DNA from: Candidatus Undinarchaeota archaeon
Lineage (GTDB): Archaea > SpSt-1190 > JASMDC01
Length of the DNA: 64,000 bases
Assembly (NCBI GenBank): GCA_964519305.1
Contig: CAZFHY010000013.1
Coordinates: forward strand, 1-64,000
Direction: 5' to 3'
How positions within the stretch are numbered: the stretch's first letter is position 1; each line of letters opens with the position of its first letter. A program made the translations under genes and the position numbers. A model generated the notes under the pieces. It saw only the letters and a program-made list of their open reading frames with translations, was not told the origin of the DNA and searched no databases. Below, piece by piece: positions 2,454 through 54,482 of the stretch.

Positions 2454-3083
2454 TTACCCTCTCACCTTCCTGAATACCTCCGCGATGAGCTCGTCAGTGC
2501 CGGTGGCGCCGGGCAGGCGCGCGATGGCCTCGGACACCATCTTCTGTGCTTCCGGGCGGGAGTATCCGAGCTGTCGCAGCACGGTCTGTGCCTCCTCCCC
2601 GATGTTCGTCTCGCGGTGCGGGGACACTCCGGGCTCGCGCAGGAGGGCGAACCGCGCCATCTTTCCGTTGAGCTCGGCGATGACCTTCTCGGCGGCCCGG
2701 TTGCCTATACCCGGGAGGCGTGTGAGCGTTACCTTATCCTTGGCCTCGATAGCGAGGGCGATCTCGCTGATCGGAAGTGTCAGCGACCTCAGCGCCCGCT
2801 TGGGCCCGATCCCCTGGACGGTGATGAAGAGCTGGAAGAAGTCGCGGGCCACGGGATTGAGGAACCCGATCAACCGGGGCAGGAGCGGGCCGGGACCGGA
2901 TCCTCCCTCGAGGTAATGAAGTGTGTGGAACGTGACGTTAAGATCGGTCGCTTGGTCGAGCCGGACCCTCAACTCGTCGAGGATGCCCGACGGAATCTGG
3001 ACCTGGTACGATACATCGTTGGAGCGCACAACCGCGAACCCGTCGCCCACGTCCTCGAGCACACCCGTGAGCCGCCAGATCAC
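2454..3083 (-). CDS. ruvA: Holliday junction branch migration protein RuvA
   Basis: N-terminal OB fold, HhH motifs VQGIGPKRA and LPGIGNRAA, C-terminal LRQLGYSRPEA. GTG start overlaps the ruvC stop (GTGA). Confidence 0.95.
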   Translation of the reverse strand: MIWRLTGVLEDVGDGFAVVRSNDVSYQVQIPSGILDELRVRLDQATDLNVTFHTLHYLEGGSGPGPLLPRLIGFLNPVARDFFQLFITVQGIGPKRALRSLTLPISEIALAIEAKDKVTLTRLPGIGNRAAEKVIAELNGKMARFALLREPGVSPHRETNIGEEAQTVLRQLGYSRPEAQKMVSEAIARLPGATGTDELIAEVFRKVRG

Positions 3084-3601
3084 GTGTCCCCGCCCCCTTG
3101 AACACCATCACGACGCAGGGCGTCACAATGGCACAGGGCAACGGCGAGCGCGTCGGACACATCTGCCGGCTTGGGTGCTTCGTCAATGCCCAGGGCCGCA
3201 GCTACGGCACCCTGCACCTGCTCCTTGGATGCGCGACCGTTACCGGTGATCGCCTTCTTCACCCTGCTTGGCGGGTAGCCCGTCACCGCAAGGTCACGCT
3301 GAGCGGCCGCCAGGAGCAGCACCCCGCGGGCGTGGCCCATGACGATGGCGGTCCGGGGCCGCTGATAATGGGTGAAGAGCGCCTCTACCGCGACACAGGA
3401 AGGCCGGAACTCCTCCAGAACGCCTCCGAGGGCCTCGTGGAGAGTGCGCAGTCGCAGCTCTAGTGGGTCCTTGGGACTTGTCCGGAGCACACCGCCCTCG
3501 ACAAGTTCGACCGAACTCCCGCGCATCTGGACCACACCGTAACCGGTTATGTTGATACCGGGGTCCAGGCCCAGGACGCGCAGTCCCTCGTCAGGCTCCA
3601 C
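3080..3601 (-). CDS. ruvC: Crossover junction endodeoxyribonuclease RuvC
   Basis: VLGLDPG..TGYGV, VAVE, HARGV, VKKAITGNGRASKEQV, DVSDALAVA. Start moved to GTG 3601, about 25 bp downstream of a TATA box. Confidence 0.96.
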   Translation of the reverse strand: MEPDEGLRVLGLDPGINITGYGVVQMRGSSVELVEGGVLRTSPKDPLELRLRTLHEALGGVLEEFRPSCVAVEALFTHYQRPRTAIVMGHARGVLLLAAAQRDLAVTGYPPSRVKKAITGNGRASKEQVQGAVAAALGIDEAPKPADVSDALAVALCHCDALRRDGVQGGGDT

Positions 3602-3620: not shown

Positions 3621-3638
3621 ACTATAAAAAAGGTTTGC
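3621..3638 (-). promoter_or_regulatory. Archaeal BRE/TATA promoter of ruvCAB (leaderless)
   Basis: Minus strand reads AAACCTTTTTTATAGT about 22-35 bp upstream of GTG 3601. Confidence 0.7.
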
Positions 3639-3666: not shown

Positions 3667-4998
3667 TCAGAGCCGAGAGAACGCCCTGATGCCACGCAGG
3701 AGGTTCATCGCGTCCCGCGGATCGCGCACTATCTCCCGTAGCCGGCGGCGGGCGAAAGCGCTTGTGAGGTAGAAGGAGCGGTAGGCCTCCCGCAGCAGCT
3801 CCTGGAGCCGTCCCTCGGAAAGGTGCGGGTGGTCGAACACCAGCTCGAACGTGTTGAACCGGTCCCACTCCCGGGAAACGTCGATGCCTCTGTCCGCGAG
3901 CCCGTCCCAGCTCGGGGTGCCGGGGAAGGGAGTGAAGATGGAGAAGTTTGCGAAGTCCGGTCCCAGGTCACGGGCCGTGTCGATGGTCGCCCGGACCGAT
4001 CCCTCGGTGTCGTCGGGGAATCCGAGGATGAAGCAGGCCCTCACGGCGACACCGTGGTCCTGGCACATGCGCATCACATCTTTTGTACGGTCAAGGTCCA
4101 CTGCCTTGCCGATGGACTTGCGCTCGTCGACCGATGCGGATTCCACTCCGATGCCCATGGAGGTACAGCCTGCGTCCGCCATGAGCGTTATCAGGTCCTC
4201 GGTGAGAAGGTCGCTGCGGGCCTGACAGTTCCAGGTGAGATCGTACTCCGTGATACGTCGGCAGAACTCCCGTGTCCGTTCGTCGTCGAATGGGAACGTG
4301 CCGTCCATTACCTTGAAGTCCCGCATACCGTGGTCCTCCACCAGCCGGTCGATGGAGGCGAACACCAGGTCCAGCTCGATGCGGGCGTGGCGTGACGGAC
4401 GCTGGCAGAAACCGCATGCGAACGGGCAACCACGCATGGTGAACACCGGGTATGAGGGCACATGCTTGGATGTGATAGTACCCTGTCCGTACCGGTCCAT
4501 GTCCAGAAGCTCGTAAGCAGGGACGCGGTCCGCGTCGGACGGGACGGGCACAGCATGGACACCTTTCGAGGCCCCGCGCACGATGGCAGCGAGCGCGTCC
4601 TCGCCGTCGCCCACGACGACATCGTCAACACACGCCTCGGCCGCGGTCTCGTTCGGAAGGACCGATGGATGAGGGCCACCCAGCACAGTGCGTGCCCCTG
4701 CGTCCCTGGCCCGCCGTGCGATATCGAGCGCCCCGGGGTACACGGACGTGTGTGCGGTGATGCCCACGATGTCCGGACTTCGGGCCAGGGCAGCATCCAG
4801 GTCCCCGGCCTGACCCACCGCCATATCCAGCACCTCCACCTCGCACCCGGTCACGTCCCGGACGTACCCGCCCAGTTGAGCCAGCCAAACCGGTGGCCAT
4901 GAGGATGCCAGATGGAACATGGCGCGGCCCATGGACCGCTCGCTCTCTGGCGGATTGACCAGCAGGAGGCGGCGGGCCCGCGTCGCCCGGGCCATCAT
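3667..4998 (-). CDS. B12-binding domain radical SAM protein
   Basis: LLLVNPP N-terminus, VLGGPHPS, VVGDGE, RGCPFACGFC (CxxxCxxC), GVES, FTPFPGT. Start at 4998 or 4995 overlaps the upstream stop. Confidence 0.93.
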   Translation of the reverse strand: MMARATRARRLLLVNPPESERSMGRAMFHLASSWPPVWLAQLGGYVRDVTGCEVEVLDMAVGQAGDLDAALARSPDIVGITAHTSVYPGALDIARRARDAGARTVLGGPHPSVLPNETAAEACVDDVVVGDGEDALAAIVRGASKGVHAVPVPSDADRVPAYELLDMDRYGQGTITSKHVPSYPVFTMRGCPFACGFCQRPSRHARIELDLVFASIDRLVEDHGMRDFKVMDGTFPFDDERTREFCRRITEYDLTWNCQARSDLLTEDLITLMADAGCTSMGIGVESASVDERKSIGKAVDLDRTKDVMRMCQDHGVAVRACFILGFPDDTEGSVRATIDTARDLGPDFANFSIFTPFPGTPSWDGLADRGIDVSREWDRFNTFELVFDHPHLSEGRLQELLREAYRSFYLTSAFARRRLREIVRDPRDAMNLLRGIRAFSRL

Positions 4999-5645
4999 CC
5001 CTCCCATTCGTAGGGCCGGGAGTAGAAGCCCTTCATGCAGGTGAGCTCCGACACGTCCTTGACCACCCGGGCCGGGCTGCCGATGACCACTTTACCTGCA
5101 GGCACGTCCTTGGTCACCACCGCGCAGGCTCCGACGATGGCCCCCTCGCCCACGGTAACGCCAGGGAATATGGTGGCCAGCGCCCCTATCTTGGCGCCCT
5201 TCTTGATGTGTGGGGCTCCCAGGCACTCAGTGTACCTCGGGCACCGTGGGTGGGGATCGTTGAGGAATAGCGATCGTGGCCCGATGAATGCATTGTCCTC
5301 GATGACCGAGTACTCGCCCAGGATGGCTGCCGTGTGGATGCTGACGTTATTACCGATTCGATGGCCGTTCTCCATGGCCGCGAGCGTGCCGATGCTCACG
5401 TTGTCACCGATAATGTTGTCCTCGCGGATGCGCGCACCGCTGCCCGTGGAAAGGTTGTCGCCGATGGTGGTCCCCGCATAGATCACCGAGTGGGTGCGGA
5501 CCACGGCGTTATCACCGATGACCAGCTCCAGTTCGCCGTCCTCGCTGCCGCGGGGCGGTACTCCGAGGACCGCATAAGGCTCGATGACCGCGCTCTTCCC
5601 AAGTCTGACGTTGGGGTACCGTACGTATGGGATTTCCTTGACCAT
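4995..5645 (-). CDS. Hexapeptide-repeat (left-handed beta-helix) N-acetyltransferase, WbpD-like
   Basis: IGDN/IGNN hexapeptide repeats, FLNDPHP, VGACAVVTKDVP..GSPARVV. Start placed at MVKEIPY. Confidence 0.9.
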   Translation of the reverse strand: MVKEIPYVRYPNVRLGKSAVIEPYAVLGVPPRGSEDGELELVIGDNAVVRTHSVIYAGTTIGDNLSTGSGARIREDNIIGDNVSIGTLAAMENGHRIGNNVSIHTAAILGEYSVIEDNAFIGPRSLFLNDPHPRCPRYTECLGAPHIKKGAKIGALATIFPGVTVGEGAIVGACAVVTKDVPAGKVVIGSPARVVKDVSELTCMKGFYSRPYEWEG

Positions 5646-5655
5646 GGGCAACACC

Positions 5656-6456
5656 TCACACCGGCGGCCTGGGCTGCACCACAAGCCGCGTGATGCCCAT
5701 CTCCGCTAACCGCCCTTCATCGGGTACGTCGTGGTTCTCGTAGAACACCGCGTTCCCCTGGAGAAGAAGGGGTCCGGGCATGATGGGATGGGTGAGCGTG
5801 AAAGATGTGGTGCGACACTGTCGGTCGCAGGGCCAGACACCAACACGGACTGGGCTGTCGCTGTCGCAGTTCGCTGTCGGGCAGAGCCGTGTAGTGGTCA
5901 CGGCCATGAACGGTGTGTATAAAGAGCCCTCCAGTGGATCGGGCCCCTTGCTAAGATCGAGGTCAAGGCCCTGGAGGGGATTGTCCACCTCGACGCGCCT
6001 GACGCCACGCTCGTGCAGGAACCGCCTGAAGATCGGGACGGTGAGATTGTTCTCACGGTACTGTCGCAGGGTTTCTTCCGGAAGGCGGTCGATCACGCGC
6101 ATGATGCGCGGCCCCTTGCGCAGCCGGTTGAGCACACGACCCATGAGCGGTTCGAGCCCCTGATCACGTAGAGTGGAAAGCACGCCCCAGTCATTGGCCA
6201 CGACCTCGCACGCAGCCTCCTCGCTAGCCAGGGCCGCAAGTACCGGCTCGAGGCGGTCCAGGCCGATATCGGTCACCAGGGGGGTGACGAGCGTGAAGGC
6301 ACGACCTGCATCCCTTGCCGCGTGGAGCACCGACATGACCTCGTTCTCGGTCGGGATCAGGTTCTGACAGAACTCGCTACCAAAGTACACGCGCCGGGCA
6401 TCGTCCTCCACAAGGTCGAGCTGGTCGGCCCGGGCTATGAGCGTGGCGCGCTCCAT
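5656..6456 (-). CDS. U32-family partner subunit (UbiV-like TIM-barrel/Fe-S protein)
   Basis: RVYFGSEFC, FTLVTP, EVVANDWG, TTTRLC..C...PCDRQC, LQGNAVF. Translationally coupled to the U32 gene (TGATG). Confidence 0.7.
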   Translation of the reverse strand: MERATLIARADQLDLVEDDARRVYFGSEFCQNLIPTENEVMSVLHAARDAGRAFTLVTPLVTDIGLDRLEPVLAALASEEAACEVVANDWGVLSTLRDQGLEPLMGRVLNRLRKGPRIMRVIDRLPEETLRQYRENNLTVPIFRRFLHERGVRRVEVDNPLQGLDLDLSKGPDPLEGSLYTPFMAVTTTRLCPTANCDSDSPVRVGVWPCDRQCRTTSFTLTHPIMPGPLLLQGNAVFYENHDVPDEGRLAEMGITRLVVQPRPPV

Positions 6457-7556
6457 CAGACGTCAACCTCCATGACCGACGGATAGTAGCAGTACCCGAG
6501 CTCGCAGTCGACGCCGAACCGCTGCTTGTGCTCGGCCCGGGTGTGGCGGATGAACTCCTCTCGTGAGGGTTTCTCGGTCGCCATGTAGTCCAGCAGATGA
6601 CGTATGAACCGCACGTCGCCCACCTTGCGTGATGTGGGGAACGCGCGTCCGATGATCTTAATGCTCTCCAGTCCCATCGTCGCCAGGTCGTGGATGGCAC
6701 AGGCGCCGCACTCTACCTGAGTCTTTCGCTTGACAAAGCGTTTCATGCGCTCATGTGCATTGGCCTGCTTCTCCTCGTCCAGGTCCCCATCGATTGTGAC
6801 CGTGTGCCGCAGCTCGCAGGGCTCCAGCCATTCCATGCACACGCTCTCGTCAATGAGCGCTTCGAGCACCCGCCGTGGCAGGCGTTTGGCAAGGGAAACC
6901 ACACGGTCGTTGTGCTTTACCGCCATGAAGGCCTTGCCCACCACAGGGTGAACAGGGTTCATGATCTCGTGGAGACCGTGCTGGAATGTACAGAAACCCT
7001 CCACGTTCCGGCAGCGACCGTTGAGGATGAACACCTCGATGCCTGTCCCCTCCGATCCTTTCACGATGCGACGTATCTCCTCGACGGTGAGGTGGCGATC
7101 GAGGATGACCCGTGATGCTCCCAGGTCCCGGAAGAAAGCGGCCGACGTGGCGTTGATGACCGAGGCCCCCGTGCTCACGTGGAGGTCAACGGGCAATCCC
7201 TCGTCCTTCACCAGAAGCAGGAGCCCGATATCGGCGATGATGAGCGCGTCCACACCCGCGTCCACGGCGGTCCTAAGCTCATCGAGCACCACAGGGTACT
7301 GTTCCTCGTCGTAGTAGTGGGCATTGGCGGCGAAGTACAGCCGTGCACCCTTGTCGTGGGCGAGCGTCGCGGCCGTCCGTATCTGGTCGAAGGAGCGGAA
7401 GTTGGGCTCGCCGCACTCGCGTCGGTTCGAAGAGCAGATGGTACTGTAGACCTCCTCCCATTTCTTCGTTATGAGGCCGCAGTAGAGAGCATTGGCGCCA
7501 GCGTCGATCAAGGGCACAACCTCGTCGGCCGTGGTCAGGGGCGCCAGCAGCTCCAT
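6456..7556 (-). CDS. U32 family ('peptidase') Fe-S protein, UbiU/TrhP/RlhA-like
   Basis: MELLAP, GANALYCG, GVDALIIADIG, LHVSTGASVIN, GASRVILDRHL, GRC....GFC, CGACA, SIKIIGR. Confidence 0.9.
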   Translation of the reverse strand: MELLAPLTTADEVVPLIDAGANALYCGLITKKWEEVYSTICSSNRRECGEPNFRSFDQIRTAATLAHDKGARLYFAANAHYYDEEQYPVVLDELRTAVDAGVDALIIADIGLLLLVKDEGLPVDLHVSTGASVINATSAAFFRDLGASRVILDRHLTVEEIRRIVKGSEGTGIEVFILNGRCRNVEGFCTFQHGLHEIMNPVHPVVGKAFMAVKHNDRVVSLAKRLPRRVLEALIDESVCMEWLEPCELRHTVTIDGDLDEEKQANAHERMKRFVKRKTQVECGACAIHDLATMGLESIKIIGRAFPTSRKVGDVRFIRHLLDYMATEKPSREEFIRHTRAEHKQRFGVDCELGYCYYPSVMEVDV

Positions 7557-7580
7557 GGCTCTCGGCGGGAAGCTGTCAGG

Positions 7581-7592
7581 CAAAATATATAA
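7581..7592 (-). promoter_or_regulatory. TATA box of the U32 operon
   Basis: Minus strand reads TTATATATTTTG about 25-35 bp upstream of ATG 7556. Confidence 0.65.
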
Positions 7593-7610
7593 CATGAACG
7601 TCCGGTCGCG

Positions 7611-8840
7611 TCAGGCCAGTGCCCGCTTGATAACGGCCACGGTCCGCTCCATGTCCTGTTCGCTAAGGGTGTGCCACACGGGCAGGGCCAATCCCTGTGC
7701 ATCGGCACGGGCGGCGACTGGGCAGGGCCGAGCGTACTGCTTCAGGGCGGGCAGGTTGGAGCAGTCGTCAGCTATGTTCACCTTCGTATCGATACCTGCG
7801 CGGAACAGCTCCTGCACCAGACGCTGGCGGTCCTCGACCTGGATGACGTAGTGGTAGTAGATGTGGCGTCCGCCATCCGCCTCCTCGGGCACTGTCACAC
7901 CAGGGACGTCCCGTAGGCCCTCGGTGAGAATCTTGGCTCGTTCCCTGCGCGCGTCACTGCTGTCGTCCAGTCCGTCGAGCTGGACAAGCCCCGTCCGCGC
8001 CTGGAGGGATGACATACGCACCGTGTAGTTCGCTGGCATCTCGTCCTGGAGCGTCTCGTCGTGTGACATGCCCTTGGGCGCTCCCCCGCGGACCATGGAG
8101 AGCAGCCGCAGCGGCGGGTACAGGCCGAGCGAGTACACCCACGGCCGGGAGAGGACACCGCCTACTGAGCCTATGGCCACCTTGATGGCGAGCTGCTTCC
8201 TGCCGGGAAGCGTATACTCTCGCTCGAGGGCGCGCACCTTTTCGGCCAGCTCCTCGTCGTCCGTCGTGACCATCCCGCCGCCGAAGGCGGTCATGTTCTT
8301 GAACAGGTTGAAGGAGAAGAGACCCGCTTTGCCAAGTGAACCCGCCCGCCGGTCGCGGTACGATGCGCCGTTCGCCTGGGCACAATCCTCTATTACCGGC
8401 ACGCCCCGCTCCTCCGCCAGCTCCAGCACCTCGTCCATGGGTGCTGGATTGCCGAACAGGTGGGTGGGGACCAGAACACCGGTGTCATCCCCGACAACCG
8501 ACCGGAGCGTCTCGGCGGAGACGTTGAGCGTGCCCGGCCCCACGTCGGCGAACACGGGCCGTCCGTTTGCCATGAGGGCGACATTGCCCATGCCCCAGAA
8601 GGTGAAGGCGGGTAGAACTACCCCCTTCCCCTCAACGTCCAAGGCCCGTAGCAGGTGGTGGAAGCCCGTCCGCGCGGAGCCCACGGCGACGGCATGACGC
8701 ACTCCGATCAGGGCTGCGAAACGTCGCTCGAGCTTCGTGACGGCGTCGGGATCCTCGCTGCCGAACAGGCCACAAGCCCCCCTGACGGTGTCGGCCAGTC
8801 CGACATTGACGTGGTGCCGCGGGAAGCTCTTGAGGCCCAT
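7611..8840 (-). CDS. DegT/DnrJ/EryC1/StrS family PLP-dependent sugar aminotransferase
   Basis: HAVAVGSA, VLPAFTF, PVFADV, THLFGNP, IEDCAQA, FSFNLFKNM (catalytic Lys), LALPV. Start placed at MGLKSFP. Confidence 0.93.
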   Translation of the reverse strand: MGLKSFPRHHVNVGLADTVRGACGLFGSEDPDAVTKLERRFAALIGVRHAVAVGSARTGFHHLLRALDVEGKGVVLPAFTFWGMGNVALMANGRPVFADVGPGTLNVSAETLRSVVGDDTGVLVPTHLFGNPAPMDEVLELAEERGVPVIEDCAQANGASYRDRRAGSLGKAGLFSFNLFKNMTAFGGGMVTTDDEELAEKVRALEREYTLPGRKQLAIKVAIGSVGGVLSRPWVYSLGLYPPLRLLSMVRGGAPKGMSHDETLQDEMPANYTVRMSSLQARTGLVQLDGLDDSSDARRERAKILTEGLRDVPGVTVPEEADGGRHIYYHYVIQVEDRQRLVQELFRAGIDTKVNIADDCSNLPALKQYARPCPVAARADAQGLALPVWHTLSEQDMERTVAVIKRALA

Positions 8841-8984
8841 GGGGCAAGAGGTGCGGTGCAGGTTTTTCAATGTTTGCTCAAGGTCGGGATGTATCGTCGA
8901 GCACTCATTTTCGGATTCACGGTGTGATCCCAAGGATCTATCGCCCCCGAGTCCCCAACGGGTCCGATGAAACACATTTGAGGG

Positions 8985-9701
8985 ATGAGCCACATTATAC
9001 TGTCGATGCAGGATCCTGCGTTCTCAGCCTCGGTCCTTGCGATCGCTGCATGCATGAGCGTGACCCACTACCTCAGCCACCGCATCTCCGTGTTCATGGA
9101 GGAGCACCACTATCGTGTCCTGAGCTTCAGCGGCGGTTCGCTCATCGCCCTCATCTTCCTGGTCCTCCTGCCGGAGACGGTGCGCATCGCCCGCACAGAC
9201 GACGTCTACCTACTCCTCCTGGCGGGCTTCGTGGCGTTCCATCTGACCGAGAAGTATCTCTACCAGCACGTGCGCAACAAGTGCGATCTCCTGGAGGACC
9301 TGCGCGAACTCCACGTAGCGGGTTTCTTCGTGGACCATTTCATCCTCGGGTTCGTTCTTGTGACGACCGTTGAGCTCACACCCCAGGCGGGTTATCTGAT
9401 CCTCATCCCGGTGTTCCTCCACACGATCTCGTCCTCTATCACCATGGAGCACATCCACGAAACTGCGGAGACGCATGTACACAAGCTGCTGCTCTCGGCC
9501 TCACCGCTTCTCGGCGCTATTGTGGCCCTCGCCCTAGAGGTAGAGGCACAGACGGAAGCATCGGTCCTGGCGTTCATCATCGGGATGCTGCTCTACATCG
9601 TCAACCGCGACATCATCCCCAAGGAGGAGAAGGGTCGTCCGGCCATGTTCATTACCGGGCTGGCGGTGGTAGTCGTGCCCTGGTTCCTGATCTCGCACTG
9701 A
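8985..9701 (+). CDS. ZIP-family-like metal transporter membrane protein
   Basis: SFSGG..IFLVLLPE, FHLTEK, His-rich TM segments (ELH..DHF, FLHT). True start may be ATG 9006. Confidence 0.7.
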   Translation: MSHIILSMQDPAFSASVLAIAACMSVTHYLSHRISVFMEEHHYRVLSFSGGSLIALIFLVLLPETVRIARTDDVYLLLLAGFVAFHLTEKYLYQHVRNKCDLLEDLRELHVAGFFVDHFILGFVLVTTVELTPQAGYLILIPVFLHTISSSITMEHIHETAETHVHKLLLSASPLLGAIVALALEVEAQTEASVLAFIIGMLLYIVNRDIIPKEEKGRPAMFITGLAVVVVPWFLISH

Positions 9702-9828: not shown

Positions 9829-9886
9829 GCGTCGGGGAAGGCACAGGCACAGCCACAATTATAAAGGTTTTCCATTGCCCCGGTGC

Positions 9887-10552
9887 GTGGCCGAAGACGA
9901 GGGGGAGAAGGCCGAGCACGAGGCGCTCGTTCGCGGTGCTTTCACCTTATTCCTGCTGAGCGCCGTGTTCTACATCCCGCTCGATCTCGCCACGACGTAC
10001 ATCTTCTTCACAAGCGTTGGAGGCGGCATCGAGCTCAATCCGTTCTTCGGTGGGCCCATGGCAAGGTGTACGACCCGCCTGTGCATCCTAGGCGTGCTGG
10101 GTGGGCTCTTCCTGCTCAAGGCAGCGCTTCTCGGATGGTTCGGGTTCATGCTCCTAGTGTACCGGTACGATCCGACGAAGGAGATCATCTACTCCCAGCT
10201 CCTGCTCCGGATATCTCTTGTATCCGCGCTGCTGTCCATCCTGCTGGTGGCCAACAACGCCCTCTTCCTCTGGCTCTACCTGTTCGAGCTTTACGCTACG
10301 TGGTTCCAGGTTGCCCTCTTCCTGACGTTCGCCATCTACGCGACCTCGTTCATACTTGGCATGGTGCTCAACCGGGAGCCCGTGGTGATCGCGGCCGACG
10401 TCGACCTCCCGGTGCTCCTTGTGGTCACCTTGGTGGTGTCGTTCATCCTGTGGGAGATATCTGGCATCCCCTACATCGCCGTGTCCTTCGCCATCCTGAC
10501 GTACGGCAACCTCGAGGTGTTCCGCTACTACTGGGAGGGCGGGGAGAGGTAG
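9887..10552 (+). CDS. Hypothetical multi-pass membrane protein (DLATT...ELNP motif, DUF5658-like N-terminus)
   Basis: About 6-7 hydrophobic helices. GTG start about 25 bp from the TATA shared with the tRNA. Confidence 0.65.
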   Translation: MAEDEGEKAEHEALVRGAFTLFLLSAVFYIPLDLATTYIFFTSVGGGIELNPFFGGPMARCTTRLCILGVLGGLFLLKAALLGWFGFMLLVYRYDPTKEIIYSQLLLRISLVSALLSILLVANNALFLWLYLFELYATWFQVALFLTFAIYATSFILGMVLNREPVVIAADVDLPVLLVVTLVVSFILWEISGIPYIAVSFAILTYGNLEVFRYYWEGGER

Positions 10553-10553
10553 C

Positions 10554-12089
10554 CTACCATCCCATCTCCGCAGCAGGCCCCCCGGGCCGCTCACGGATCC
10601 ATCGCACGATCTCGTTCTTGGTGTCGAACAGCTCGTAGCCACGGAACAGCAGGTGGGCAGGTGCCGAGACGTTCGGTGTATGGGCACGCAGGGCGGCCAG
10701 GATACGCTGACGCGAGCGCTCCTGCCCCTCCTTCTTCTGGTCCCAGGGAACGCCTCCCTCGTCGAAGTGTATGTGCGCACGATTGCCGTCCCACACTACA
10801 TCCCGGTTCTCGATGATGGCATCGATACCGAACTCATCGGGATGCTGCATGATGACCGACGCCCGATAGGGGATGAACACGAGCACATTGTAGTTGTCCA
10901 TGGTATGACCGTGGGTGCGGATGAACGCCTCGGTGAGGGCGATATCCTCCTCCGTCTCGGAGACGAAACCGGCGATGAGGTTCACGAGGTTCCAGATCCC
11001 AGCTTCGTGGGAGGCCTCCAGCACCGCGCCCGCACCGTCGACGGTGAACCCCTTGCGCATGAGCTCAAGGAGGCGTGGGCTTCCCGTCTCCGCACCGTAG
11101 GTGAGGCGCACGCATCCCGATGCGCGGAGACGGTCGAGGCGCGATCGGTCCAGGCCTGTTGGCCGGGCCGAGTCCATCCACAATATGTCGAGCCCCTCCC
11201 GCGCGACCGCGTCGCACCAGTCCCGGACGTACTTCTTCGAGATGTTGAACGTGTTGTCCAGGAATAGGAAATGTCGGGAGCTGTAGGTATCGGAGAGCCG
11301 TGCGAGCTCACCGACCACCTTGTCCATAGCCTTTGCCCGGAGCCCGTCGAGATTATAGCTGTAGTAATTGCAGAACGTACAGTGACTGGGACAGCCCTTA
11401 ACGAGCTGGTAGGGCAGGGGGAGGATGGTGGCGCCGTCCACGTCCAGCGAGTACACGTCCATGGGAAGTCCGCTGAAATCGGGTGCGGGGACCTCCTCGA
11501 TGGGCAGATGAGCGCGAACGTTGCTTTGGACCACGCCGTCCGCGTCCCGGTACACGAGCCCCGGCACGTCCTCCACGCGACGCGTCCCCTCCAGATGCTC
11601 TAGAAGTCCCAGCATGGGGATCTCTGCCTCGTCCATGACCACATAGTCGACGAAGGACGCCTGGGCCAGTGTCTCCTCACCGACATTGGGACCACCCAGC
11701 ATTATCGTGGCACCGGTCGTCCCCTTGAGGTGGCGAGCGAGGCAGAGGGCAGGCAGCACCTGGTCCGGCTCCATCACGGAGAGTCCGATCAGGTCAGCGC
11801 CGCGGATGTCCACCTTCCGCGCCATGCGCTCGACCAGGGTATCCAGGTAGGGATCGGGTCGACCGTCGAGGTAGGGCAGCACCCGGCCACGGTCGGCCAA
11901 GAAGAGAAGGTTGACGTGAAGGGTACGAGCGGGTGTGCGGTTGTCCCGCCACACCAGGGCGTCCACGTCGTCCTGGTCCACCGCAACACCGTTGGTGCGG
12001 AGGAACGCGGCCAATGTCGCCTGCCCCAGCGGGAGGGTGCGCGGATGGGTCCCGCCGTCTGTTGGGGCGAAGAGCAGATGTACCTTCAT
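10554..12089 (-). CDS. B12-binding domain radical SAM protein
   Basis: LPLGQATLAAFL, IMLGGP, KGCPSHCTFC, FLDNTFN, YGAETGS. Confidence 0.92.
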   Translation of the reverse strand: MKVHLLFAPTDGGTHPRTLPLGQATLAAFLRTNGVAVDQDDVDALVWRDNRTPARTLHVNLLFLADRGRVLPYLDGRPDPYLDTLVERMARKVDIRGADLIGLSVMEPDQVLPALCLARHLKGTTGATIMLGGPNVGEETLAQASFVDYVVMDEAEIPMLGLLEHLEGTRRVEDVPGLVYRDADGVVQSNVRAHLPIEEVPAPDFSGLPMDVYSLDVDGATILPLPYQLVKGCPSHCTFCNYYSYNLDGLRAKAMDKVVGELARLSDTYSSRHFLFLDNTFNISKKYVRDWCDAVAREGLDILWMDSARPTGLDRSRLDRLRASGCVRLTYGAETGSPRLLELMRKGFTVDGAGAVLEASHEAGIWNLVNLIAGFVSETEEDIALTEAFIRTHGHTMDNYNVLVFIPYRASVIMQHPDEFGIDAIIENRDVVWDGNRAHIHFDEGGVPWDQKKEGQERSRQRILAALRAHTPNVSAPAHLLFRGYELFDTKNEIVRWIRERPGGPAAEMGW

Positions 12090-28588: not shown

Positions 28589-30700
28589 TCAGATGGACGC
28601 AGCAGCACCGTGGAGCATACGCGCCCGGTGACCGGAGTAGAACGAGTCGTACTCCTCCTCGCTGTACTTACGGACGCTCTGCCGGTCCTCCTTGCGGATA
28701 ACGAACGCATAGGCGTTGGCGTACTTGGCCTTGACCTTCTTCACACGGAAGGAAAGCCCCAACGTCTCCAGGAGGTCCTCGATGTACGATAGCTTCCACT
28801 GGCGCGGAGCAGAGATAATGTAGAAGGACTCCTCGAACACGAGGATGGTGGCACGACCACCCCTCTTGAGCACGCGCTTGATCTCGCGGAAGAGATTGTC
28901 TGTGCTCACCACCTCCTCGGAGAGGCCAATACCCACGATCTTGTCGAAGTATCGGTCGGGGAATGGGAGGAACTCGGCATCTGCGCGCACGTATGATACG
29001 TTGCGGATGAGCGCCAGGTGCTCCCGGGCGATCTCCAGGTCATGGAACCCGACATCTGTGGCGTACACCCACTTGGCGCTCTTGGAGAGTTCTGGCACCA
29101 GCAGCCCCGTGCGACAGGCGATCTCGAGCACGGTGTCCTCGTGCTTGACGGCCGCCGTGCGCAGGAACTCCTCGCGCATCCACTCAGGATAGGCATAGTA
29201 GGCCAGCGTGTCGTAGAAGGGCGCGATCATCTCGTTGAACGCCACCACGAACTTCTCGTTGTACTCTACTTGGAGGATGAAGTAGATGGGCACCCCCACG
29301 AGCACAAGGGATGTCCCCTTGAGGAACTCGATCTGGTCCACCTGGGACATGATGACGATGGTGGTCAGTACGCAGATGAGCGAGACCAGGGAGAAGGCGG
29401 GGGTCTTGTAGGGTCGCTCCATGGATGGCTTGCTCAGCCTCAGGACTGGAACGGATAGGAAGATGAGCGCGTACACGATGAGCGCCACGGGGATGAGCGC
29501 CGTGATGAGGGCGTGGAAGTCGGCCGTGAGCACGAGCACCGTGGCGAGGGCCGCCTGGATGATGAGGGCGTTGACCGGGGTCTTGTAGGTCGGGTCGAGC
29601 TTGGCGAAGAACACGGGGAGCATCTCGTCCTTGGCCAGGGCGTAGGGGATGCGTGCGTGCGAGAGGATCCATGAGTTACAGCATCCGAGCAGGATGACAA
29701 CCGTCCCGATCACGAGCCAGGGAACGGCTCGTGGGCCGAGGGCGGGGGTCCGCTCCACCACAAGAGCGACGGGCGCCTGGCTCTCTCCAAGCTCGCGGGC
29801 GGGGACCACGCCGAGGGACACGATGACCACGGACAGGTAGAGGAACACGATGATGACCGTGGACCAGACTAGGGCCGTCGGTACGGCGTGCTTGGGGTCC
29901 TTGGTCTCCTCACCCAGGAATGTCACGCACTCCCAACCGATGAACGGCTCGATGATGATGGCTGCTGCTGCCAGCAGCATCGCCCAGTTGGGTTCCACGA
30001 ACTCCATGAAGTGGTCAACCTCGATGGCGGGAGCGCCGAAGAATATGATGGCACCCAGCACGCACAGGGTGATCACGGTGAACACACGTTGGATCTGGGC
30101 ACCGAGCTTGACTCCCAGGTAGTTGAAGAGGGTGAGCACCCACAACATCGCTGCGGCCACCATGCGGGCCCGCGGCTCGCCTATATGGATCAGGTGGTCG
30201 AGGTACTCCACGATGCACGCGCTGATGACCATGGCGATAGTTACCCAGCCGATGACCCACGCCGACCATCCGACGAGGAAGCCGATGAAAGGGCCGAAGG
30301 CCTCCTTGCAGTAGGTGTACACGCCACCGGCCTCAGGGTACATACTGGCCAGTTCGGCAATGCACATGGACATCATGATGGCCAGCGTCCCGATGGACGC
30401 CCACACGAAGATGGACTCGGGTCCCGCGATCCCTGCGGCGATGCCGGGTATCATGAACACGCCCGAGCCCACGATGGCCCCGATGGAGAGGAACATGAGG
30501 TCGTACATGGAAAGCGTACGTTCCATCTCCTCGACCTCATCGAGCTCGAGCTTCGGGATGCGGCGGACTACCTCATCATAGCTGATGCGTACGCGATGGT
30601 AGGGACTTCGCCGGGCTACGCCTTTGCCTCCGTAGGCGCTATAGCTGCCTACAGACCCTGATGCATCATCATCCGATGACGGGCCTTCCTCCGTCTTCAT
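28589..30700 (-). CDS. APC-family amino acid permease fused to a C-terminal class I SAM-methyltransferase-like domain
   Basis: GAIVGSGVF, ELASMYPEAGG, FIGWE..GEETKDP, then VLEIACRTG, ADAEFLPFPDRYFD, EIKRVLKRGG. TATA at about 30724-30732. Confidence 0.9.
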   Translation of the reverse strand: MKTEEGPSSDDDASGSVGSYSAYGGKGVARRSPYHRVRISYDEVVRRIPKLELDEVEEMERTLSMYDLMFLSIGAIVGSGVFMIPGIAAGIAGPESIFVWASIGTLAIMMSMCIAELASMYPEAGGVYTYCKEAFGPFIGFLVGWSAWVIGWVTIAMVISACIVEYLDHLIHIGEPRARMVAAAMLWVLTLFNYLGVKLGAQIQRVFTVITLCVLGAIIFFGAPAIEVDHFMEFVEPNWAMLLAAAAIIIEPFIGWECVTFLGEETKDPKHAVPTALVWSTVIIVFLYLSVVIVSLGVVPARELGESQAPVALVVERTPALGPRAVPWLVIGTVVILLGCCNSWILSHARIPYALAKDEMLPVFFAKLDPTYKTPVNALIIQAALATVLVLTADFHALITALIPVALIVYALIFLSVPVLRLSKPSMERPYKTPAFSLVSLICVLTTIVIMSQVDQIEFLKGTSLVLVGVPIYFILQVEYNEKFVVAFNEMIAPFYDTLAYYAYPEWMREEFLRTAAVKHEDTVLEIACRTGLLVPELSKSAKWVYATDVGFHDLEIAREHLALIRNVSYVRADAEFLPFPDRYFDKIVGIGLSEEVVSTDNLFREIKRVLKRGGRATILVFEESFYIISAPRQWKLSYIEDLLETLGLSFRVKKVKAKYANAYAFVIRKEDRQSVRKYSEEEYDSFYSGHRARMLHGAAASI

Positions 30701-30807
30701 CTGACAGGACAAGTAGGAGCATATCATTAAAAATGATTCGATGAGGGTCGTAGTAACCACCTCGGAGTGTTCACAGCGTTAAGTCGACTTCCCGACCACA
30801 TAATCCG

Positions 30808-50731: not shown

Positions 50732-53524
50732 ATGGGGGATATGGCGCGCAAGGCGAAGGGGAAGCGAAAGGGCATAGCCGATAAGGAGGTGCCAAAAACG
50801 AAGAACGCGGCCCCGAAAGCCAAGCCCCTCAGGAAATCCCATTCCCGCACCGTGCGCGAGGAGGGCGGTATCGCTGAGCTAACTGCCGTTGTGAAGAGAA
50901 CTGGCCTCTACCAACCCGCGCTCCTTCGTTATGCCTGGATCCCCCTGCTGATGGTCATCGTGTTCACAGGCCTCTGGCTCAGGATGTCACCAGTGAACTA
51001 CCGTCTGACCGCTTACGATCCGTTCTTCATGGTCCGGATGTCACGGGACGTGGCGGATACGGGCGCCATGCCCCCCATAGACACACGTGCTTACTTCCCC
51101 CTCGGCCGTGATACGGGCACTACTCGCATCCTTACACCACTTGTCATCGCAAAGCTCCACGGCGTGCTCTCCTATCTCAATCCTTCGTACACCGTTGAGA
51201 CGAGCGCCAAGATGTATCCTGCCGTCTTGGGCGGGCTCACTCTTCTGGCCTTCTTCTTCTTCGCCGCCGAACTGTTCTCGACGGAGACGGCCTTGCTTGC
51301 CACCTTCCTCCTCGGTACGGTCCAGGGTTTCCTATACCGTACGTCTGCGAACTTCTCGGACAAGGAGGGCGTTGCCATCCTCCTAATGGCTTTATGCCTC
51401 TGGTTCTTTGCCAAGGCGCTCAATGCCAAGGAAAGGAGACTGTGGTTGGCGTACTCGGGCCTCTCGGGCCTCACACTTGGTCTTATGGGTTATGCGTGGG
51501 GAGGGTACCGCCTCAACTACCTCTCGATCTCATGCTTCTTCCTGTTCCAGACACTACGTATGCGTATCTCGCGTCGTCACCTGGAGATGTTCGGTGTGTT
51601 CATCATCGCAACTTCGGCCCTTATCATCGGTTCCTATTCCACATACATCCTCAAGGACTCGCCTGGGCTCTTCGCCTATGGCACCTTCGTGTTCGCCCTC
51701 GTCTCCGTCTATATCAAGGAGCGTAAGGTGTTCACGACCCCCTGGCTCCAGCTCTTCTCAGCAGCGGTGATCACCTTCAGCATCGGGATGGTGGGCCTCT
51801 TCATCATCTCCAACGGGAATCCCACTGGCCTAATCAAGCCCACGATCAACACAATCATGGGCGTGAAGATGCAGGAGGGCGACGTCCACCGATGGTCGGT
51901 AGGCGAGCAGCAGCGACCTGTCTGGGCCTGGCCGTTCACGTCCGGGTGGAAGACTTCCGAGGGGAGCACCTGGTGGGGCCACCAGAAGTTCCTGTTCCCG
52001 CTCTTCTTAATCGGGCTCATCGTGGCCCTCGCCGAGGGGCATATGCTGGATAACGAGCATGCGGTGTTCGCCGGGGCGTTCATGCTCATGTCCTTCTTCG
52101 TGAGCTTCCTCATGGTGCGTCTCCACTTCCCGCTCTGCGTGCCCGCTGCGCTCCTTAGCGCCTACGTGCTGCGACGTGCCTGGGGACCCACTGTACCTCA
52201 GAATGAGGACGAGGAGGGTTTCATGTTCAGTCACTATGTCTCGCTCGCCTTCATCGTGTTCGTCATCCCACTCACCATCCTTGCGACCCTGCACACAGGA
52301 GGCGCTAACGCCACTGTATCCCCGGAACTGTCCGAGTCGGCCTACGTGCTCCACGGCTGGGCGACAAGGAACATGAGCGATTATGTGTCGAACCTCGGTT
52401 CCACCGAGTCGTTGGCAGACACACTTACCAGTGTGTTCGTGCTTTCCTGGCTCGTTTTCTACCTGGCGCTTCTGGTGTCCTACGTCAGGAGCGTCGAGCT
52501 CCGTAACTTCGCCAAGAAGCTCATCATCGCCTTCTTCATGTTCTGCCTCTGTAGCTACACGCTCATCGACGGGTACGCGTTCGCTTCTGGCCTGAACTCA
52601 TCAATGGACCCTGACTGGCTTGACAGCCTTCTCTGGCTCAAGCATCATTCGCCCGACGATGCGATCGTCATGACCTGGTGGGACTACGGTTACTGGATCC
52701 AGTACGTGGCCAACCGCACAACAGTGACGGACGGGGAGAACCGCATCTCCAACTGGAACGTGGACATGGGCCAGTTCTTCCAGAAGACCAACGCTGACGA
52801 CTTCTTCTCCTTCCGCAAGTGCGCTCCTGACGCATACCCCTTCTGCAATTTCGTGCACGCCAACACCGGTGCTGGCGAGGTGTTCATGGACTATCACACC
52901 CTCGATCCGGACACCGGGAAGCGACGACCCGCCTACATAATCATCGACAACACGCTCATCGGCAAGTTCTACTGGGTCACCAAGATCGGTGATAACTGCA
53001 TCGCTACAAAGTGCGGGACCCAGTTCCAGTACTTCCCCATAGCCAAGACGTCCGAGAACCCGGAGGACCAGCGCCTCGGAGCTGGCGTCTACATGAACTA
53101 TATCTACAAGCGGCTGCCCAATGGTGATGTTTCGCAGAAGGTCGCCCAGATCAACCTCATGTTCGACACACAGCACGGGGGATACATCCCCATCATCCTT
53201 GTAGGGGGCATCACGCCCGAAGGACAGTTCCGTATCGAGGAGGAAGCCATCATCGGCAAGTACATGGTGGCCGGCAGTCCGACCATATTCGAGACCCAAG
53301 GGATCAAAGAGGACGCCAACGTATTCCCCGGCATGGTCATTATCGCACGAAGCTCCGATCCACGACGGGGTGCCCTGTACTATGTAGAGGAGAAGACCGT
53401 GGACATGCTCTTCACAAACCTCTACTTCAGGGACGGGGTCGGCGTAGACTGGGTGGAGAAGGTGCACGACTCCAAACCCTACGGGACCGTGAAGGTATTT
53501 AAGATAAAATACCCAGAAGCCTAG
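50732..53524 (+). CDS. aglB: Archaeal oligosaccharyltransferase AglB (STT3 family)
   Basis: YDPFF, FSDKE, SVGEQ, WWDYGYWI, RTTVTDG, DNTLIGK, 13 or more TM helices. Start is 50732 or 50741. Confidence 0.95.
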   Translation: MGDMARKAKGKRKGIADKEVPKTKNAAPKAKPLRKSHSRTVREEGGIAELTAVVKRTGLYQPALLRYAWIPLLMVIVFTGLWLRMSPVNYRLTAYDPFFMVRMSRDVADTGAMPPIDTRAYFPLGRDTGTTRILTPLVIAKLHGVLSYLNPSYTVETSAKMYPAVLGGLTLLAFFFFAAELFSTETALLATFLLGTVQGFLYRTSANFSDKEGVAILLMALCLWFFAKALNAKERRLWLAYSGLSGLTLGLMGYAWGGYRLNYLSISCFFLFQTLRMRISRRHLEMFGVFIIATSALIIGSYSTYILKDSPGLFAYGTFVFALVSVYIKERKVFTTPWLQLFSAAVITFSIGMVGLFIISNGNPTGLIKPTINTIMGVKMQEGDVHRWSVGEQQRPVWAWPFTSGWKTSEGSTWWGHQKFLFPLFLIGLIVALAEGHMLDNEHAVFAGAFMLMSFFVSFLMVRLHFPLCVPAALLSAYVLRRAWGPTVPQNEDEEGFMFSHYVSLAFIVFVIPLTILATLHTGGANATVSPELSESAYVLHGWATRNMSDYVSNLGSTESLADTLTSVFVLSWLVFYLALLVSYVRSVELRNFAKKLIIAFFMFCLCSYTLIDGYAFASGLNSSMDPDWLDSLLWLKHHSPDDAIVMTWWDYGYWIQYVANRTTVTDGENRISNWNVDMGQFFQKTNADDFFSFRKCAPDAYPFCNFVHANTGAGEVFMDYHTLDPDTGKRRPAYIIIDNTLIGKFYWVTKIGDNCIATKCGTQFQYFPIAKTSENPEDQRLGAGVYMNYIYKRLPNGDVSQKVAQINLMFDTQHGGYIPIILVGGITPEGQFRIEEEAIIGKYMVAGSPTIFETQGIKEDANVFPGMVIIARSSDPRRGALYYVEEKTVDMLFTNLYFRDGVGVDWVEKVHDSKPYGTVKVFKIKYPEA

Positions 53525-53528
53525 TCCC

Positions 53529-54479
53529 ATGGAGCTTGCGGTCTGCCTGGCGGTCTCCTTCGTAGTCACATACCTAGCCGTCCACTTCTACATCCCGCGG
53601 GCCATTAAAGCGGGCATCACCGGTAAGGACATGAACAAGCGCGACAAGCCGGAGGTCGCCGAGATGGGCGGGCTCGCCGTAGTGGCCGGGTTCCTGGTGG
53701 CCTACCTCCTTGTCATTTACAATGCTCCGGCCGAGACACTTCCCGACCACCTCGCGAGCCTGGCCACCATCCTCGTGGTCACCATCGTAGGGATGGTGGA
53801 CGACCTATTCGACATGCGTCAGAGCGTGAAGGCCGTGCTCCCCGTGCTGGCCTCGCTCCCCTTGGCGGCGATCAAGGCCGGTACGCATATCATGTACTTC
53901 CCCATTTATGGTGCGGTATATCTCGGGGACGCCTATCCATTGCTACTGGTCCCCCTGGGGATCACAGGTGCCGCCAACGCATTCAACATGCTCGGAGGCA
54001 TTAACGGGCTGGAGGCAGGGATGGGCATCATCTCGTGTGTCACTGTGCTCGTGTGCGCGGTCATCGCGGAGCGGACCGCGTCTGCCCTGCTCATGGCGTG
54101 CATGGTGGGTGCTCTTTGCGCCTTCTACTTATTCAACCGTTACCCGTCCAAGGTGTTCCCCGGTGATGTGGGCACACTGACCATCGGCGCCGCCATCGCA
54201 GCAGCGGTGATCATCGGGAACATGGAGCGTGTTGGACTGTTCGTGGTTACGCTCTACTTCGCCGAGCTCGTGCTCAAAGCAAGGACCGGGTTCAAGGCCC
54301 AGTGCTTCGGCACACCCACACGCGATGGTCTCGAGCCGCCGGAGGACATCGGCTCCCTCACCCATATCGTGATGCGCCACACTACCGACGAACCTCGAGT
54401 GGCCTATACCCTGTTCGTCATCCAGGCTCTGCTCTGCTCTCTTGTGGTCATGAACGTGTACCTGACCTACGGAGTGTAG
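53529..54479 (+). CDS. aglH: UDP-GlcNAc:dolichyl-phosphate GlcNAc-1-P transferase (AglH/GPT, MraY-like)
   Basis: GKDMNK, EMGG, GMVDD, NAFNMLGGINGLE, FNRYPSKVFPGDVG. Confidence 0.9.
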   Translation: MELAVCLAVSFVVTYLAVHFYIPRAIKAGITGKDMNKRDKPEVAEMGGLAVVAGFLVAYLLVIYNAPAETLPDHLASLATILVVTIVGMVDDLFDMRQSVKAVLPVLASLPLAAIKAGTHIMYFPIYGAVYLGDAYPLLLVPLGITGAANAFNMLGGINGLEAGMGIISCVTVLVCAVIAERTASALLMACMVGALCAFYLFNRYPSKVFPGDVGTLTIGAAIAAAVIIGNMERVGLFVVTLYFAELVLKARTGFKAQCFGTPTRDGLEPPEDIGSLTHIVMRHTTDEPRVAYTLFVIQALLCSLVVMNVYLTYGV

Positions 54480-54482
54480 GCA

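Follow-up and report, generated by a model that had tools for sequence, protein, structure and literature searches.

The window analysed here is a stretch of 64,000 nucleotides (positions 1 to 64,000 of contig CAZFHY010000013.1) from an uncultured marine archaeon assigned to Candidatus Undinarchaeota, whose DNA is met with in oxygen-deficient seawater. The source genome measures 3.63 Mb in 42 contigs and is 99.8% complete and 4.3% contaminated; the 15 other genomes of the class that were sampled range between 0.6 and 1.2 Mb. On the minus strand, between positions 3667 and 8993, five genes follow one another head to tail, and among them stands a pair of adjacent genes coding for a large protein of the U32 family and for a smaller partner that appears, by its sequence and its predicted fold, to be a divergent relative of the U32 proteins. 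The features of this gene cluster, in the order DegT, U32, partner, hexapeptide transferase and radical S-adenosylmethionine (SAM) protein, are the following:

7611..8840, minus strand: DegT/DnrJ/EryC1-family pyridoxal phosphate aminotransferase; the open reading frame (ORF) extends to 8993, with ATG 8840 as its likely start
7582..7592, minus strand: TATA-like A/T run TTATATATTTT, 5' of the U32 gene
6456..7595, minus strand: U32 large subunit; ORF of 379 amino acids, or 366 amino acids from the likely start at ATG 7556
5656..6456, minus strand: putative UbiV-like small partner, of an unannotated family, 266 amino acids
4995..5645, minus strand: hexapeptide (left-handed beta-helix) N-acetyltransferase, QdtC/WlbB-like; a longer frame opens at TTG 5684
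3667..5007, minus strand: radical SAM protein with a B12-binding domain, 446 amino acids

The genes are tightly packed. U32 and partner have one base in common (6456). The distance from the partner stop at 5656 to the hexapeptide transferase ATG at 5645 is 10 nt (or the stop is 29 nt within the frame that opens at the TTG), and there is an overlap of 13 nt between the end of the hexapeptide transferase gene, with its stop at 4995, and the radical SAM gene, with its ATG at 5007. The run TTATATATTTT at 7582–7592 is the only one of at least seven A/T bases within 3667–8840, the 64-kb window having 35 runs of at least eight such bases overall. It sits 26–36 nt upstream of the U32 ATG at 7556 and is identical in two relatives (L016 and L095, both 93% identical), and we infer from the sequence that it acts as a promoter. 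The ATG at 7556 is also where the alignment of the paralogs and the first strand of the fold model begin (residues 1–10 have a predicted local distance difference test score, pLDDT, of 41). Translation from 7595 would make the A/T run coding and place U32 15 nt from the DegT stop, with DegT co-transcribed. A look for RNA reads turned up eight sequencing runs from two studies, all of them of DNA. A second A/T run is located at 3623–3631, ahead of ruvC, so that the operon probably ends at 3667. A preliminary description of this DNA had listed the same genes in the same order, with overlapping or near-abutting junctions, the DegT gene immediately upstream of U32 on the same strand and one TATA-like run before U32. 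The ORF coordinates (7611–8993 for DegT and 6456–7595 for U32) and the Pfam matches agree with it on every one of these points.

The large subunit is a clear member of the U32 family. Its ORF matches PF01136 with an E-value of 4.4e-31 (108.4 bits, gathering threshold 22.4) over profile positions 6–228 of 233, and the profile of the large-subunit paralogs matched E. coli UbiU with 99.6% probability in hhalign. The identity to UbiU, TrhP and RlhA is 27–30% over about 190 residues; a phmmer search of the PDB gave nothing at E ≤0.01, and the fold model (pLDDT 88.7) had 5d88 as its top Foldseek match (E 2.6e-8). Seven cysteines (C195, C202, C260, C296, C299, C364 and C369) are invariant in all of the 75 large subunits compared, and among them C195 and C202 align with C169 and C176 of UbiU and C260 with its C232. 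The canonical iron-sulphur (Fe-S) motif of U32 proteins is given as CX6CX15CX3/4C (PMC6747719). The large subunit presents a variant of it, with the CX6C (C195, C202) present and no cysteine at +15 to +17. Neither the UbiU equivalog model NF047963 (90.6 bits, cut-off 440) nor that of TrhP, NF011996 (82.4 bits, cut-off 534), was reached.

In a quick maximum likelihood tree the 75 partner-linked U32 proteins fell together across a branch of length 1.2, with a support of 99 in the Shimodaira-Hasegawa approximate likelihood ratio test (SH-aLRT). E. coli UbiU, TrhP and RlhA were on the opposite side of this branch, as was a 707-amino-acid RlhA-like protein of the same genome (G000:C1:75910-78033) that groups with E. 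coli RlhA. Judged by these comparisons, the large subunit is part of a clade separate from the three E. coli proteins. The preliminary description had named grouping with TrhP1/TrhP2 or with RlhA, together with an unconserved association with sugar genes, as the outcome that would speak against its proposal. Both the tree and the NCBIfam cut-offs set the clade apart from TrhP, RlhA and UbiU of E. coli, the references used, while TrhP1/TrhP2 of B. subtilis (PepU32#5/#3, YrrO/YrrN) and the other PepU32# sequences lay outside the comparison, and for this reason the clade might be identical to one of the unnamed published subfamilies that carry a PepU32# label. Twelve U32 subfamilies have reportedly been defined (Kimura 2017 and Sakai 2019).

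The partner had been proposed in the preliminary description to be U32-like. Its 266 residues matched no family of Pfam or NCBIfam. Four cysteines, C30, C192, C210 and C214, recur without exception in the 83 homologs compared, and 146 of the best 150 of the 2309 representatives found in a protein library have them as well. An oddity of UbiV is that a long stretch separates its first cysteine, which is not in the U32 domain, from the three that follow (PMC6747719), and the partner has this UbiV-like layout, with C30 far ahead of C192, C210 and C214. The profile of the seven partner paralogs of the genome matched the large-subunit profile over the N-terminal ~150 residues with 80% probability (hhalign, E 1.5e-5). 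A model built on 83 homologs is a TIM barrel (pLDDT 95.6) and its top solved match is 5d88, a U32 structure (Foldseek E 1.2e-4; VIA-align Z 14.2 over 199 residues, root mean square deviation 3.9). Compared with single sequences of E. coli UbiV or UbiU the partner profile gave 0.3% probability in hhalign, a single-sequence target being uninformative, and with PDB sequences there were chance-level matches only, the best of them a short-chain dehydrogenase/reductase (SDR) at E 0.008 and none a U32 entry. Taken together, the profile match, the invariant cysteines and the modelled barrel indicate that the partner is a divergent U32-like protein of the UbiV-like type, as had been supposed. The family is large (the 2309 representatives were found at E ≤1e-3 among 1.84 billion) and anonymous, the 30 nearest clusters of the ESM Atlas all being named hypothetical protein.

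The DegT ORF matches PF01041 (E 2.7e-76, 257.6 bits, gathering threshold 19.8) and reaches no NCBIfam equivalog cut-off; its best solved relatives are a glutamine-scyllo-inositol transaminase (7b0d, 5.8e-42), perosamine synthetase and QdtB, i.e., sugar and inosose aminotransferases, in agreement with the DegT aminotransferase of the preliminary description. Ten DegT proteins of bacterial clusters that also carry the pair form one clade (support 91/91), and a 100/99 branch places the DegT of the window with these bacterial, cluster-linked proteins and separates it from two further paralogs of its own genome. The hexapeptide transferase (PF00132, E 4.2e-22) has QdtC (3fs8, 1.6e-37) and WlbB (3mqg, 1.5e-17) as best solved relatives, which are nucleotide-sugar N-acetyltransferases, so that the earlier assignment to the sugar N-acetyltransferases holds as well. 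With 87.8 bits it does not reach the cut-off of 160.8 of the NeuD/PglB/VioB model TIGR03570, and it appears closer to the QdtC/WlbB class without an N-terminal domain. It has orthologs in L079 of Woesearchaeota (4e-79), where the gene adjoins the pair, and in L073 of Nanoarchaeota (1e-82), where 7.5 kb separate it from the partner. The radical SAM protein at 3667–5007 has an N-terminal PF02310 domain (5e-23) followed by PF04055 (5.3e-18) and an ortholog in the L079 cluster (1e-107). It reaches no NCBIfam cut-off, the best scores being those of HpnJ (134.7 of 577.6) and BchE (127.3 of 481), and its best solved relative, AprD4 (6fd2, 5.9e-23), is a dehydratase and not a methylase. At this distance a methylase, a dehydratase and a ring-rearranging enzyme would look alike in sequence.

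Upstream of the DegT gene there are further genes, of which those for the second radical SAM protein and the epimerase possibly belong to the same locus:

8985-9701 and 9875-10552, plus strand: two ORFs for membrane proteins, between the DegT and the second radical SAM genes; the first is weakly ZIP-like (E 3.8e-5, below cut-off), the second matches no family
10554..12089, minus strand: second B12-binding radical SAM protein, 511 amino acids
12126..13109, plus strand: GalE-like nucleoside diphosphate-sugar epimerase (SDR)

The second radical SAM protein (PF04055 5.8e-17, PF02310 3.1e-6) has as best NCBIfam models ApyD and a C-methyltransferase of ribosomally synthesised peptides that are modified after translation (RiPPs), both below cut-off. 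It is syntenic in L016 and L095, and in L073 the partner has an ortholog of it (7e-67) as a neighbour. The SDR protein (PF01370 1.5e-50) was considered as a 4,6-dehydratase and rejected, being closer to GalE-type epimerases (8rdg, 3e-96; archaeal UDP-glucose 4-epimerase 3ehe, 1.9e-84).

The pair is not a single occurrence in this genome. PF01136 was found in 12 of its genes, 11 of the clade of the pair and the RlhA-like one. An adjacent partner paralog stands beside seven of the 11, leaving four extra large subunits. A relative of the same genus has seven partners too, and none was found in the 39 other archaeal genomes searched (completeness 72–100%). Close orthologs of the whole operon beyond its own lineage were not found, the copies in L016 and L095 being the only ones, and all other partners are at most 48% identical. 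The neighbours of the other pairs of the genome include arrays of four or five PMT_2 genes (GT-C type glycosyltransferases), a class I methyltransferase, asparagine synthase, family 2 glycosyltransferases (GT2), Zn-ribbon and B12-binding radical SAM proteins, a GFO/IDH/MocA oxidoreductase and a chorismate synthase with a flavin mononucleotide (FMN) reductase; one pair adjoins TFIIE-alpha and a family B DNA polymerase, which, like the AglB/STT3 gene of the window, mark the genome as archaeal. The genome as a whole has 44 PMT_2 and 26 B12-binding-domain matches, and a gene with a B12-binding domain was found within 10 kb of four of the seven independent U32 loci (random mean 0.83, P 0.005). The genome has two matches to chorismate mutase and can therefore make prephenate. 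Chorismate synthase is a step of the shikimate pathway leading to prephenate, and at C2:184429-188207 (L011:8429-12207) the partner and U32 genes are followed by the FMN reductase-like gene and the chorismate synthase. Two arrangements of large subunits can be added: at C4:167406-176421 (L013) a stretch of 9 kb contains four of their genes, a single partner and, in between, two PMT_2 genes, and an orphan large subunit at C4:139025-140224 is beside an LPG_synthase_TM gene.

For a wider comparison we retrieved 116 loci (79 of species genomes, 37 of metagenomes), which with the copies of the own genome gave 123 partners; these are not independent, 13 of them being from the lineage of the window. 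In 92 of the 123 a U32 gene was found on the same strand within 300 nt, placed first in 61 and after the partner in 31. There were also 31 partners without an adjacent U32 gene, 16 of them within 1.2 kb of the end of the locus. Within 6 kb of the 123 partners the neighbours were non-B12 radical SAM proteins (27), B12-radical SAM proteins (22), FAD_binding_4 (12), DegT (11), amine-oxidase-like flavoproteins (9), CCG (8), LipA/LplA (8), GT2 (6), PMT_2 (6) and hexapeptide transferases (4). The DegT cases are the three of the lineage of the window plus eight bacterial loci in several partner clades.

On the partner tree the kinds of neighbour sort by clade. A clade with GlcD-like and CCG proteins contains Bathyarchaeia, Hadarchaeota, Chloroflexota, Actinomycetota and others. 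A clade with LipA/LplA and another of solitary partners come from Thermodesulfobacteriota and Myxococcota. Clades of Omnitrophota, Planctomycetota, Verrucomicrobiota, Lentisphaerota and Kiritimatiellota have DegT, the flavoprotein, a Tes/TrsS-like Zn-ribbon radical SAM protein and several B12-radical SAM proteins, and the DPANN loci make a further grouping. In L079 (Woesearchaeota) the U32, partner and hexapeptide transferase genes are in a row, accompanied by a radical SAM protein, a carbamoyltransferase and B12-radical SAM proteins. The two members of the pair have co-diversified: the distances in the partner and U32 trees correlate over 65 pairs with r 0.84, a value reached by none of 1000 permutations and inflated by shared ancestry, and over the seven pairs of the genome with r 0.54 (reached by 119 of 5000 permutations).

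Two GlcD-like FAD_binding_4 proteins and a CCG Fe-S protein are beside the pair in L027, L030, L046, L048, L054, L058 and others (also in Thermodesulfobacteriota), and could be an electron-acceptor module for it. Genes for indolepyruvate:ferredoxin oxidoreductase are located by the U32 cluster in two of the 123 neighbourhoods, L082:2970-5325 (Omnitrophota), where the alpha subunit is above the TIGR03336 cut-off, and L079:6189-8206 (Woesearchaeota). Phenylpyruvate is a substrate of this oxidoreductase and is also the proposed by-product of prephenate-dependent hydroxylation.

Fused proteins also connect the partner with other enzymes. Among the same best 150 representatives of the partner family, four are fusions. 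Three of them join a class I SAM methyltransferase to the partner, on either side of it, and the fourth is a protein of 1220 amino acids made up, in this order, of a B12-radical SAM domain, a family 1 glycosyltransferase (GT1), the partner and a methyltransferase. This last protein connects the partner physically with glycosyl transfer and with B12-radical chemistry. The methyltransferase fusions fit a hydroxyl that is introduced and then O-methylated, which is the sequence of events in ubiquinone synthesis and for the yrrM-yrrN-yrrO operon of B. subtilis. A search for longer fused forms in a set of 5.8 billion proteins found none at E ≤1e-10 among 8000 candidates, which is weak evidence.

TrhP of E. 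coli, and TrhP1/TrhP2 together with TrmR, act in the hydroxylation of tRNA at U34 and its subsequent O-methylation, and RlhA (E. coli YdcP) hydroxylates C2501 of 23S rRNA. The published account of yrrM-yrrN-yrrO describes TrhP1/TrhP2 as a tandem U32 pair encoded with the TrmR methyltransferase, and reports TrhP1/TrhP2 from bacteria only (PMC6599085). This arrangement parallels the partner-methyltransferase fusions and the methyltransferase found beside another pair of the genome (G000:C1:288192-291075). A close parallel to the pair is UbiU-UbiV (E. coli YhbU/YhbV), factors of O2-independent ubiquinone hydroxylation, likewise encoded by adjacent genes for a larger U32 protein and a smaller partner with a far-upstream first cysteine, and UbiU shares the CX6C of our large subunit. 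However, the latter lacks the canonical third cysteine and has the extra invariant C296, C299, C364 and C369, and the partner has no detectable PF01136 and no significant match to E. coli UbiV. The context is different too, with amino-sugar and radical SAM genes, in an archaeon, and no UbiT-like or quinone gene seen nearby. From TrhP the large subunit is distinguished by its low score in the equivalog model and its position in the tree. With RlhA it has in common a U32 domain with conserved cysteines; RlhA carries in addition a DUF3656 (PMC5727448), whereas the protein of the window has PF01136 alone.

Regarding the other enzymes, the locus has a DegT and a beta-helix N-acetyltransferase like those of QdtB/QdtC and WbpE/WbpD(WlbB), but with the U32 pair between the two genes and the B12-radical SAM protein after them. 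The radical SAM protein resembles AprD4, HpnJ, BchE and the class B methylases in having a B12-binding-like N-terminal domain and a radical SAM core, although all of its NCBIfam scores are far below the cut-offs.

We consider the chances about even that the pair is a two-subunit Fe-S enzyme of the U32 type working in an amino-sugar operon, where it would carry out an O2-independent oxidation or hydroxylation of a sugar building block of the cell envelope. The large subunit and the UbiV-like small subunit would form a heterodimer with Fe-S clusters and, by analogy with UbiU-UbiV, TrhP and RlhA, would perform a two-electron oxidation or hydroxylation that does not require O2 and probably depends on prephenate. 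Because the pair is in an operon with DegT, a QdtC/WlbB-like acetyltransferase and a radical SAM protein, the most likely substrate would be an acetamido-sugar or a block of the cyclitol type, linked to a nucleotide or a polyprenyl, and destined to the envelope. In the most economical scheme such an amino-sugar or aminocyclitol may be aminated by DegT, N-acetylated by the QdtC/WlbB-like enzyme and oxidised or hydroxylated by the pair, and the radical SAM protein may add a radical alkylation, dehydration or rearrangement. In the literature searched U32 proteins have roles in three processes only, the hydroxylation of ubiquinone, tRNA and rRNA, with in vitro activity reported for none of them (PMC10990095, PMC11574389), and none in a sugar, glycan or archaeal-lipid context, so that the absence of a described sugar role claimed in the preliminary description is borne out. 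The sugar-tailoring reading is plausible and unpublished.

Several results weigh against it. The reactions characterised for U32 proteins take place on aromatic or heteroaromatic carbons (PMC10990095, PMC11574389), so that a sugar carbon would be new chemistry and is without precedent as a U32 substrate. The sequence likeness between the partner and the U32 proteins is weak (the 80% in hhalign described above, and no match to the single E. coli UbiV), and CutC ties with 5d88 as a structural match of the partner (VIA-align Z 13.8). No enzyme that would supply DegT with a keto-sugar was identified in the operon, where a domain scan found no ketoisomerase, 4,6-dehydratase or GFO/IDH/MocA 3-dehydrogenase, and the nearby SDR is epimerase-like. 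PMT_2 genes are near three of the seven U32 loci of the genome, which is not significant (random mean 1.14, P 0.09). Lastly, sugar genes are absent from most partner clades, which have GlcD-like/CCG proteins, LipA/LplA or nothing recurrent as neighbours, and the family as a whole is therefore not sugar-specific. The hydroxylation and C-methylation of the preliminary description stay conjectural, the radical SAM protein reaching no methylase cut-off. Its proposal is in this way upheld in part: the context is conserved in some clades, DegT being found by 11 of the 123 partners in several of them, and the fusions and the sugar-type DegT and acetyltransferase speak for it, but a sugar association of the pair in general is contradicted by the majority of the clades.

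The nature of the substrate is where the first alternative departs. The target of oxidation by the pair could be an electron-rich carbon in a lipid anchored to the membrane, or in a molecule linked to a polyprenyl, with the sugar genes building the attachment, which we regard as unlikely but worth keeping in mind. UbiU-UbiV act on a polyprenylated ring, octaprenylphenol (PMC6747719, PMC10990095). In 15 of the 123 neighbourhoods there is a Zn-ribbon radical SAM protein whose best models, below cut-off, are TrsS and the tetraether lipid synthase Tes. Related clusters contain a PEMT-like methyltransferase, LPG_synthase_TM and GT-C membrane proteins, and the 44 PMT_2 matches of the genome point in the same direction, although their association with the pairs is not significant. 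On the other hand, a membrane or lipid-binding domain was recognised in neither of the subunits, the scanned neighbours showed no prenyltransferase or quinone gene, and those of the window and of the other pairs of the genome include no SCP2/UbiT-like protein.

A second alternative retains the sugar and changes the reaction. The lack of a keto-forming enzyme in the operon keeps alive the idea that the pair is itself an oxidase, turning a hydroxyl of a sugar or cyclitol into a keto compound that DegT aminates and the hexapeptide enzyme acetylates, with no hydroxyl added. The position of DegT directly upstream of the pair suits this, as does the two-electron oxidation proposed as the first step of U32 enzymes (PMC10990095). 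Nevertheless, U32 proteins are not known as plain dehydrogenases, a gene at another site of the genome could provide the keto-sugar, and the partner-methyltransferase fusions are better explained by a new hydroxyl that is then methylated than by a keto product, and we find this alternative rather doubtful.

A role of the cluster in modifying a peptide or a protein, in the manner of RiPPs or in the maturation of surface proteins, with the sugar enzymes as accessories, is improbable. The below-cut-off resemblance of the second radical SAM protein to RiPP C-methyltransferases and the SPASM-type and PqqE-like radical SAM proteins of related loci would agree with it. However, H-x-S runs of at least four repeats are absent near the U32 loci of the genome and in the 116 fetched loci, and no precursor-like gene was identified, small ORFs not having been searched systematically. 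A candidate substrate in the window, a Cys-rich protein with repeats of about 57 residues that runs off the start of the contig (1-1047, plus strand), was rejected, its relatives being at three other sites of the genome and on contigs that carry no U32 locus. Although RNA is the substrate of all the well-studied U32 enzymes apart from UbiU-UbiV (PMC6599085, PMC5727448), and TrhP1/TrhP2 of B. subtilis form a tandem pair, an RNA hydroxylase like TrhP or RlhA with coincidental neighbours is very hard to reconcile with seven pairs in one genome, the separate RlhA-like gene that groups with E. coli RlhA, the grouping of the family in a single clade to which TrhP, RlhA and UbiU of E. coli do not belong (SH-aLRT 99), the TrhP score of 82.4 bits for a cut-off of 534 and the fusion of the partner to GT1 and B12-radical SAM domains.

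Returning to the pair as a tailoring enzyme of envelope sugars, a broader version can be put forward more tentatively. U32 pairs may be a general, modular O2-independent oxygenating family for the envelope glycans and glycolipids of anaerobes, acting here on a carbohydrate or cyclitol carbon, and the large-genome member of an otherwise genome-reduced archaeal class may have gained the pair from elsewhere and multiplied it into seven specialised copies, which would function together with B12-radical SAM enzymes and GT-C glycosyltransferases. The pair does recur across many anaerobic phyla, with the links to DegT, radical SAM proteins and glycosyltransferases present in some clades only. A family of about 2300 representatives linked to amino-sugar enzymes, methyltransferases, glycosyltransferases and radical SAM enzymes would constitute genetically compact systems in which to test prephenate-dependent oxygen insertion, in addition to the three processes known to use U32 proteins. 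The family may account for oxygenated or methoxylated sugars in the envelopes of strict anaerobes, which have to be made without O2, and naming the small subunit, now a hypothetical protein wherever checked, would better annotate many uncultured lineages.

The rest of the window contains a few other genes of interest. Directly after the radical SAM gene that closes the operon, and also on the minus strand, are ruvC (3128-3577), ruvA (2454-3083) and ruvB (1439-2452), all of bacterial type; of 41 genomes searched, two gave a match to RuvC (PF02075), namely this one and the relative of the same genus, whereas the 39 other archaea gave none. At 28589-30760 (minus strand) there is an amino-acid permease with a class I methyltransferase domain fused at its C-terminus. 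Finally, at 50732-58069 (plus strand) the oligosaccharyltransferase AglB/STT3, a family 4 glycosyltransferase of the N-acetylglucosamine-1-phosphate transferase type, a third B12-binding radical SAM protein and a YfhO/PTPS-related GT-C membrane protein are in a row. A poly-ferredoxin protein comes next (58105-60318), and the third radical SAM protein is thus inside a string of N-glycosylation genes.

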